Part shown: positions 33,001-36,000 of the stretch, piece by piece
Layout of the letters: every line of letters starts with the position of its first letter
Numbering within the stretch: the first letter of the stretch is position 1
Assembly: GCF_013167455.1 (NCBI RefSeq)
Contig: NZ_CP038328.1
DNA from: Escherichia coli O157:H7
GTDB taxonomy: Bacteria; Pseudomonadota; Gammaproteobacteria; Enterobacterales; Enterobacteriaceae
Length of the DNA stretch: 64,000 nucleotides
Direction: 5' to 3' (one strand)
Position numbers: made by a program

Positions 33001-36000
33001 ATGAAAACGCCAGCTGTATTCAGGCTGGCGTCAGGGGAAATGAAGCCTGTTGAGTGAGATTCACCGGTTCTGGTGCAGAAGCTGCAGATGGCGCAGGGTA
33101 AGGGCATCTTCTCTTGCCTGCTTAATACAGGACAACAGTGCTGTTTCTGTGGTTAATGGCACTATACCCTGCATCACTGCATTGTCTTACAGCAACTGGT
33201 GAGGGCTGGCATAAGTTGCCGGTGTTTCGGTAGAGTCACGGTCATCCACCACGCGGAGTGAATAACCGTTTTCAGCGGCCTTATTAATCAGTTCAGTGAT
33301 ATTAACACCATCAATGTCAACGACAATGTGCCCCATATCCAGCGCCTGTACGTTAACGCTGTCGGCTTCCAGTGTCATCATTTCGCCTCCGGATACTTAC
33401 CCAGGGTAATGTTATTTACCGTTCTGTAATTGTCGCGGGTCATCAGGCCGGTCGCCCTGCGAGCCCGGAGGATATCGATGCTGTTTATTAACTGAGAGCG
33501 GGTACAGGCGCTGAATCCCGGCTGGTCGGTAGCACCAGCGCGTATTTTTCCACGAGAAAGTTCACCGCATCACACAGTGAAATGCCTGCCTCAATATGCT
33601 GCTCAATCACACGTTCATCGGCAAAAGGTGTGTCATTCAGTGTGAGGCCATAGTGCTGGTCCAGCAGTCGGGACAGCAGTATCTGCCAGATTTCAACAGG
33701 AGACGGGCGAGAACTGGCCGCCTGCCCGGGTAATACAGGTAATGTTTTCATACTGAAGATTTTCCTGATATGCAGATATAAAAATGGAAAAGTGGCGTGG
33801 TGAAAACACCAGGCCGTAGCAGAAGGCTATTCTGGAGAGTTAATTTTTCATTTCGGGCGTCGGATAAACAGCCAGATAAACGTAACCACAACTGCTGAGG
33901 GTATCGGCTTTGCAGGTCAGCCCTTTTGCATACAGCGTGACGGTATGCTGATGGCGGGGATTCAGTTCACCGCTGGTGAGCATGAGTTCCAGTTGTTTCA
34001 TCAGCAGCGGAAAGGCCTGGTCCGGGTGGTACGCATCTGCATCGCTGAACAGGCCTCTGATACCGGCGCGGTCGGCAAGGTAATGCAACCGGTTACCCTC
34101 CTGCACCAGACGTGCCCCGAAACAGGGCGTCACGGTGCAGGGCAGCCCCCACCAGGGGCGGTCGTGATTGTCGTCGGGAAGTGTTGTCCCGGGGAGTGTG
34201 TCTGACACGATAAAATCCTTACAGAAAATCGGCTAAGAATGGTCCGGTAGTGGCGATAATTCTGCTCATCAGAATTCCCACTCAGTTCAGGGTGACGCTC
34301 ATCAGCCGGACATACGGACCAAAACTGTCCTTACGGCGTTCAGCAAACACGGCCAGCACACCGGGAATATCCTGCACTTCACGACCGGTATACGCTTCAG
34401 CACTGCCGTGCCAGCGGTATTTACCGGTACAGAACGGAAAAAGACGGGATGTCGGATGTTGTTGGTGAATACGCATGGCTTCACCACGGGTGATAATTTT
34501 CATAATGGGATACCTCTGAAGACAGAAGATAAAAGTGAAAACAGGTGTGATGTGGTTGTGACGGGTTAAAGCAGACCATGTTCGGCAAAGGAGAAAACCT
34601 GGTTGCCACCGACTATCAGATGGTCCGGCACCCGGATATCCACCAGGCCCAGTGCCTGTACCAGACGTTCGGTGATAAGCCGGTCTGCCTTACTGGGTGT
34701 GACTTCACCGGACGGGTGATTGTGTGCCAGTACCACGGCAGCGGCATTGTGGTACAGGGCGCGTTTAATCACTTCCCGGGGATGGACTTCCGTGCGGTTG
34801 ATGGTGCCGGTGAAGAGGGTTTCACCGGCAATCAGCTGATTCTGGTTGTTCAGATACAGCACCCGGAACTCTTCACGCTCCAGTCCCGCCATGTTCAGAA
34901 TCAGCCATTCCCGTGCTGCACGGGTGGAGGTGAAGGCCACACCGGGTTCATGAAGATGGCGGTCCAGGGTTTTCAGGGCCCGTTGAATGAGGCTGCGCTC
35001 GCCGGGCGTCATTTCTCCGGGCAGAAAGGAAATCTGTTGCATTATTCCGGCCCCTTTCAGTCAATGATGCGCATAATGGCGCTGCCTTCCGGATGCTGCA
35101 GGGCGTAATCCCGCAACCGGTAATAATGGACCGTCATGGCATAATTCTCCGTACGACAGGCATGATGGCTGTACGTCATCAGACAGGCGGCAATACCGGC
35201 GGCTTCCGGGCTCATTTCAGCGCGGTTACCGTTCATGGCATTGAACAGTACCCATGTTTCGTCATCATCATCATCCGGTTCGGGGGCCATAAATGCCCCG
35301 CCGTTGTTCAGGGTGTACAGATTCCAGATACCACCGCAGTAGTCTTCGCACAGACGGTCCATCCAGCCGAAGACACGGGGCTCCAGGGTGACCCACTGTG
35401 GAATGAGGCCAAAATGCTGCGGCCAGAAGCTGATGCGCTGTTCATCAGGGACGAGGCTGGCAACCAACTGAGGCGGATTATTCTCTGGTGTTGTAGCTGA
35501 ATAAATTGTGGGGGTATTCTGAGAAACGGTTTTCATGAGATAACTCCTTAAATAACAAATAAATGTGTGTTTTTCGGGAACGAAAGCTGAATGATTCCCT
35601 CACTCAGGGAAACGGCATCAGCGCAGGCTCTCCAGCATCGTTTCTGCCATCACCCACAATGCGCGATTGAGCTTAATGTCGGTATCAATGCTGTGAATGG
35701 CCCGGGTATGGATACGTTTTCCTTTTGCACTGCGACCGGAAATCCCGCCTTTCAGCATATTCTCCTGGATGGTCTGATATGCGCTCCACAGGTCCTTACC
35801 GTAATCCTCCCGGCGTCGCGGCGTCAGAATGTCGGCGGTGGTGACGGGCTGATGTTCGTCACCATAACGGTAAGTCAGTGCCGCCTGTGCCAGCGCCTGG
35901 CGTGCCGGTTGCGGCAGGACCAGCGACTGCATGGCATCACGCTTCTCCTCTATCCGGTCAAACACGCCCACCACCTCGTAAGCCCCTTCGATAACTTTCT

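Follow-up and report, generated by a model that had tools for sequence, protein, structure and literature searches.

A frameshifted allele of the type IV toxin gene cbtA beside an intact cbeA antitoxin gene in Escherichia coli O157:H7

Introduction

In Escherichia coli O157:H7, the type IV toxin gene cbtA (yeeV) has a broken reading frame and lies next to an intact antitoxin gene, cbeA (yeeU). The question raised by this locus is whether the break is a sequencing error, a selective decay of the toxic component or an inherited allele, and whether the shortened product may retain activity. The first two readings had been offered in a preliminary description made from the sequence alone. The window, i.e. 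the whole stretch of DNA analysed here, comprised 64,000 nucleotides of contig NZ_CP038328.1; the coordinates of all features are compiled in Table 1.

Results

Position and sequence of the deletion

Nucleotide alignment with cbtA of E. coli K-12 MG1655 (NC_000913.3, b2005) gave 374 identical columns out of 375, the sole difference being the loss of G221. On the plus strand, this corresponds to a C that is missing between positions 33531 and 33532 of the window, and the sequence context (GTGC-G-TACC) is no homopolymer. The gap lies inside the range 33529-33535 in which the preliminary description had assumed a one-base loss. The same description had placed the shift after about codon 73, with the C-terminal 50 or so residues encoded in another frame. 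This agreed with a tblastn search with K-12 CbtA, in which residues 1-73 were found at 33751-33533 and residues 75-124 at 33530-33381, in different frames and each at 100% identity. The native part of the remaining product ends with the residues EKYALV, and the out-of-frame tail is terminated by a TAA stop codon at 33488-33490. The native C-terminus (TDQPGFSAC...GKYPEAK) is encoded in the second frame of the gene and ends at 33378-33380, where the original stop codon overlaps the start codon of yeeW (ATGA). In a Pfam search, the 87-aa product matched CbtA_toxin (PF06755) with an E-value of 1.3e-37 at profile positions 1-73 of 112 only. The window copy of cbtA has a CbeA/YeeU-family antitoxin gene immediately upstream, as expected of a member of the CbtA family, and lacks the complete frame of about 124 aa including the conserved stretch R74-G118.

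Table 1. Features of the cbtA region and of the adjoining island end (window coordinates).
Feature	Position	Strand	Evidence
cbtA (yeeV) pseudogene, 374 nt, type IV toxin, CP4-44-type island	33378..33751	minus	K-12 alignment and RefSeq annotation
1-nt deletion site, G221, middle base of codon 74 (CGT)	33531..33532	minus	Pairwise alignment with K-12 and per-gene comparison
Remaining open frame, 87 aa (CbtA residues 1-73 plus 14-aa out-of-frame tail)	33488..33751	minus	ORF listing, three-frame translation, Pfam
Out-of-frame remnant, native CbtA residues 75-124 plus original stop (33378-33380)	33378..33530	minus	tblastn, three-frame translation
cbeA (yeeU) antitoxin, intact, 122 aa	33840..34208	minus	98.4% identity to K-12 CbeA; Pfam CbeA_antitoxin (PF06154) 1-100 of 101
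yeeT (DUF987), intact, 73 aa	34282..34503	minus	Pfam 1-65 of 65; 0 mismatches to K-12
yeeS (RadC-like JAB), intact, 158 aa	34566..35042	minus	Pfam RadC 2-121 of 121
Antirestriction protein gene, intact, 159 aa	35057..35536	minus	Pfam Antirestrict 1-92 of 92
DUF932 (YafZ/YfjQ-like) gene, intact, 273 aa	35618..36439	minus	Pfam DUF932 2-227 of 227
yeeW, 64 aa, remnant as in K-12 (DUF5983 N-terminal domain only)	33187..33381	minus	Pfam DUF5983_N only
DUF957 gene fragment	about 33062-33154		
Transposase relic	about 32636-32773		
EutP/PduV fragment (yoeF)	about 32391-32573		

Frequency and annotation of the allele

The frequency of the allele lacking G221 (deltaG221) was determined with a 44-mer centred on the deletion, which is unable to seed a match on the intact allele. 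Matches were obtained in 1510 of 5426 complete E. coli genomes (about 28%), in 1504 cases at 99% identity to the 44-mer or higher. The intact 45-mer counterpart matched 3308 genomes, a count that includes paralogues at other loci. As a rough guide, the deltaG allele makes up about half of the approximately 2644 records with a K-12-type cbtA at 99% identity or higher. Many complete genomes from unrelated lineages contain the entire 374-nt sequence at 100% identity, and the exact 87-aa protein occurs on at least 1000 contigs in public protein collections, where it is named, for example, "Toxin of the YeeV-YeeU toxin-antitoxin system".

Nine carriers were inspected (O157:H7, WG5, O104:H4, O111:H8, 58-3, NCCP12480, SC475, S1-KEN-03-A and TW14359). 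In all nine, the allele was located at the tmaR-yeeA-sbmC-dacD locus and was labelled "cbtA, frameshifted" in RefSeq. The core gene yeeA beside the island is interrupted by IS621 in O104:H4 and SC475 and frameshifted in O111:H8. Intact alleles of 375 nt occupy the same site in seven genomes (K-12, JJ1886, EC-JS426, PSS-11, AZ184, CAVP776 and AGR5151). The locus thus has the properties of a frameshifted pseudogene, i.e. a frame that is broken relative to intact orthologues at the same site and a break that is reproducible in independent assemblies. The window copy is an ordinary, already annotated pseudogene allele and no new feature; a literature search for the cbtA frameshift of O157:H7 retrieved no paper describing it.

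Single-base indels are the commonest type of assembly error, and the preliminary description had suggested a sequencing error as one of its two explanations, in which case the real cbtA would be intact. The probability of such an error is negligible. Many complete genomes obtained independently, from different lineages and by different laboratories, contain the identical 374-nt sequence, and the deletion site does not lie in a homopolymer. The recurrence of the same deletion in more than a quarter of the complete genomes excludes the error, and the "frameshifted" flag in RefSeq likewise refutes it.

Island and neighbouring genes

Positions 30000-50000 of the window (20 kb) were 100% identical to many O157:H7 chromosomes, including those of TW14359 and EC4115. 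According to the annotated regions of TW14359 and K-12, the island occupies the CP4-44 site and adjoins tmaR-yeeA-sbmC-dacD. Along the strand of cbtA (minus), the order is the DUF932 gene, the antirestriction gene, yeeS, yeeT, cbeA, cbtA and yeeW, followed by remnants and then by the core genes tmaR, yeeA, sbmC and dacD. The antitoxin, yeeT, radC-like, antirestriction and yafZ-like genes, which had been described as intact, were all full-length by Pfam, and cbeA differs from its K-12 counterpart at 2 nucleotides.

The island end past cbtA is a run of remnants, and the same set of remnants is present in K-12, in which cbtA is intact. A full-length paralogue of yeeW (DUF5983, 163 aa) is encoded in the serX island of O157:H7, and DUF4942 is absent from the downstream end of the island in the window. 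The TonB-dependent receptor gene of the island (about 41011-43158) is annotated as intact in TW14359 and as incomplete in PV15-279; its K-12 counterpart is yoeA, a pseudogene split by IS2. On the far side of the core genes, dacD is directly adjoined by tail genes of a lambdoid prophage (J, Lom, tail fibre) and by nleG7, which encodes a type III effector (about 16000-27450). This side of dacD is the side of sbcB in K-12; a prophage therefore separates dacD from sbcB in the O157:H7 genome analysed here.

Origin and spread

Among themselves, the deltaG alleles vary at two sites at most (G34A and T126G). The core flank of their carriers (tmaR, part of yeeA, and sbmC) differs by up to 24 of 1319 aligned bases, which is as much as between any sampled pair, and the carriers do not form one clade on this flank. 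Near-identical deltaG alleles on divergent flanks, together with the non-homopolymer site, argue for a single origin. The island end from yeeS to yeeW (33187-35042) diverges by about 0.27% from K-12, and yeeA, sbmC and dacD (28767-31788) by 1-2.7%. Given its lower divergence, the island end is younger than the core flank or was more strongly homogenised, whether by recombination or through gene conversion between islands of the CP4 type. One mutation, followed by spread of the allele over divergent backgrounds through inheritance and through homologous recombination at the conserved end of the island, is the simplest account; the core-flank data are compatible with an ancient origin as well as with recombinational spread and do not separate the two. 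The intact cbtA genes of EC-JS426 and CAVP776 carry five clustered substitutions at positions 273, 276, 291, 295 and 300, a pattern that resembles a short tract converted from the gene of a paralogous toxin.

Consequence for the toxin protein

In an alignment of 25 members of the family (69-100% identical to K-12 CbtA), 20 of the 45 invariant columns fell within the lost residues 74-124, a segment that is therefore under strong constraint in functional toxins. The invariant positions concerned include R74, T75, D76, G79, the SIDILRAR block, G102, L103, Y109 and G118. A solved structure of CbtA was searched for and none exists. An AlphaFold model based on a shallow alignment was of moderate quality (mean pLDDT 62.5, pTM 0.50). 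It comprises helices at residues 18-34, 46-54 and 59-73 with pLDDT values of 74-86, a low-confidence linker at 72-89, and weaker helices at 91-101 and 106-116. In this model, the frameshift coincides precisely, with moderate confidence, with the end of the better-predicted three-helix N-terminal unit, whose last helix spans residues 59-73. R15 and F65, which were mapped genetically as MreB-specific and FtsZ-specific residues of CbtA, respectively (Heller et al. 2017, PMC5624674), are both located within the retained residues 1-73. Among variants of the deltaG product, D40N, in a family-invariant column, was found on 418 contigs, and R15H, at the mapped MreB contact, also exists; the substitutions are too few for a dN/dS estimate. 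With the conserved C-terminal part lost, the 87-aa product is most likely non-toxic or strongly attenuated. It is conceivable from the model that a folded N-terminal fragment would keep some binding.

The antitoxin beside the broken toxin

CbeA acts without binding to the toxin and bundles FtsZ and MreB. Its protective effect extends to other inhibitors of FtsZ, according to a passage of Heller et al. (PMC5624674) citing Masuda et al. 2012, and YkfI and YpjF, two paralogous toxins, are likewise neutralised by it (Wen et al. 2017, PMC5371832). O157:H7 carries at least one paralogous toxin-antitoxin module that is intact, in the serX island beside tRNA-Ser and ghrA, so that CbeA, even as an orphan, could still be of use in this organism. 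Several other carriers, e.g. WG5, kept cbeA and contained no other cbtA-like sequence as judged by megablast (one place per record). In 58-3 and NCCP12480, cbeA is cut to its last 65 nt or so (5652-5714 of each fetched region), with deltaG cbtA still adjoining, and zinc-ribbon genes and an ISL3 relic replace the upstream island genes. The same cbeA remnant is present in several other genomes; the exact junction of 58-3 was rare in a search with a junction-spanning query. A simple lag in decay explains the intact cbeA equally well as its usefulness.

Discussion

It is highly probable that deltaG221 is a true heritable loss-of-function allele of cbtA with a single origin and an intact cbeA beside it. 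One base would have been lost once in an ancestral copy of cbtA, and about one in four sequenced E. coli would now carry the resulting allele at the same site of the chromosome through descent and recombination. Translation stops after 73 native and 14 foreign residues, and the C-terminal third of the CbtA domain, which is conserved, is lost. CbeA may have been kept for its direct action on FtsZ and MreB and for the neutralisation of paralogous toxins and other division inhibitors, or it may simply not have decayed so far.

Selective decay of the toxin, the other explanation of the preliminary description, is plausible but overstated, and as a description it is fair but incomplete. Of the five genes in the conserved block, the toxin gene alone is broken, and to this extent the term holds. 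It is only partly apt because yeeW and the DUF957 gene are remnants as well and DUF4942 is missing, a state shared with K-12, and because some strains, such as 58-3 and NCCP12480, have since lost cbeA too beside deltaG cbtA. Moreover, the allele is an old, inherited and widespread polymorphism and no event particular to this strain.

Loss of function was weighed against the idea that the 87-aa protein is a functional toxin, attenuated or with separated functions, whose N-terminal helical module binds FtsZ and/or MreB and whose allele is maintained for this reason. This is unlikely. The mapped contacts R15 and F65 are kept, the break coincides with the end of the better-predicted N-terminal unit, and the allele frequency of 28% might indicate maintenance; however, descent and hitch-hiking account for a high frequency just as well, and the structural model has a low overall confidence. 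The 87-aa frame is intact in most database members, at a divergence too low to mean much. In work by Tan and colleagues from 2011, C-terminally truncated YeeV reportedly still gave cell elongation. Against an active fragment stands the loss of nearly half of the invariant positions of the family, and the circulation of substitutions at invariant D40 and at R15 among deltaG alleles is suggestive, though not decisive. In some strains, cbeA was deleted beside deltaG cbtA without apparent consequence, which speaks against a toxic fragment, yet deletion of the antitoxin is tolerated by K-12 according to a passage in PMC5371832. The more specific proposal that deltaG221 encodes a stable three-helix CbtA fragment, which keeps the F65/FtsZ and/or the R15/MreB contact and would act as a mild or separation-of-function modulator of the cytoskeleton, is slightly less probable still. 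If it were true, selection would help to explain the retention of the allele at about 28% together with an intact CbeA.

Restoration of full-length CbtA at a low level by programmed -1 ribosomal frameshifting or by transcriptional slippage is very improbable. The -1 frame is open from nucleotide 183 of the gene to the original stop codon, which provides an overlap of 79 nt (nt 183-261) with an A5 run at nt 203. Slippery heptamers and homopolymers were sought in this overlap, and neither an in-frame X_XXY_YYZ heptamer nor any run other than A5 was detected. An A5 run is too short for efficient slippage. A permissive Rfam scan (E <= 1) of positions 32000-36500 gave no family matches and hence no frameshift element. 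The intact 375-nt alleles at the same locus identify the loss of one base as a mutation and not as a conserved design of the gene. Recoding was rejected on the basis of the missing slippery site, the missing Rfam match and the intact alleles.

With the loss-of-function allele as the preferred reading, the CbtA/CbeA module of CP4-44, which was studied in K-12, has a frameshifted and probably defective toxin gene in a considerable fraction of natural E. coli, among them O157:H7, O104:H4 and O111:H8. Roles assigned on the basis of K-12 (stress tolerance, persistence, biofilm) should not be extrapolated to deltaG lineages without a check of the allele, and the carriers represent a natural orphan-antitoxin case for CbeA. 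If the 87-aa product were active, it would map the minimal functional domain of a dual FtsZ/MreB inhibitor; otherwise the allele has little importance beyond annotation hygiene. The finding may be regarded as mildly interesting in view of its frequency, which includes major pathogenic lineages, and of the position of the break, which falls on a predicted domain boundary.

Comparison with known systems

The closest known system is the type IV toxin-antitoxin module CbtA/CbeA of CP4-44 in K-12, in which cbtA (yeeV, b2005) lies at the same locus and in the same gene order as in the window. The K-12 gene retains G221 and encodes a protein of 124 aa, whereas the window copy encodes 87 aa and lacks residues 74-124. 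Unlike CP4-44 of K-12, the island of O157:H7 is devoid of flu (Ag43) and yeeR and carries genes for a patatin-like phospholipase and an RdcB-family protein instead. The pseudogenes annotated by RefSeq/PGAP as "cbtA, frameshifted" in O157:H7, O104:H4, O111:H8, WG5 and others represent the same allele as that of the window, without any difference. The module in the serX island of O157:H7 comprises a YeeU-family antitoxin, a CbtA-family toxin, full-length DUF5983, DUF957 and DUF4942, i.e. the same families in the same gene order as in the window. Its toxin gene shares a stretch of 45 nt around the deletion site with cbtA of the window, but the G is present. The serX-island module is intact with full downstream genes, whereas the window copy is frameshifted and has a truncated downstream end.
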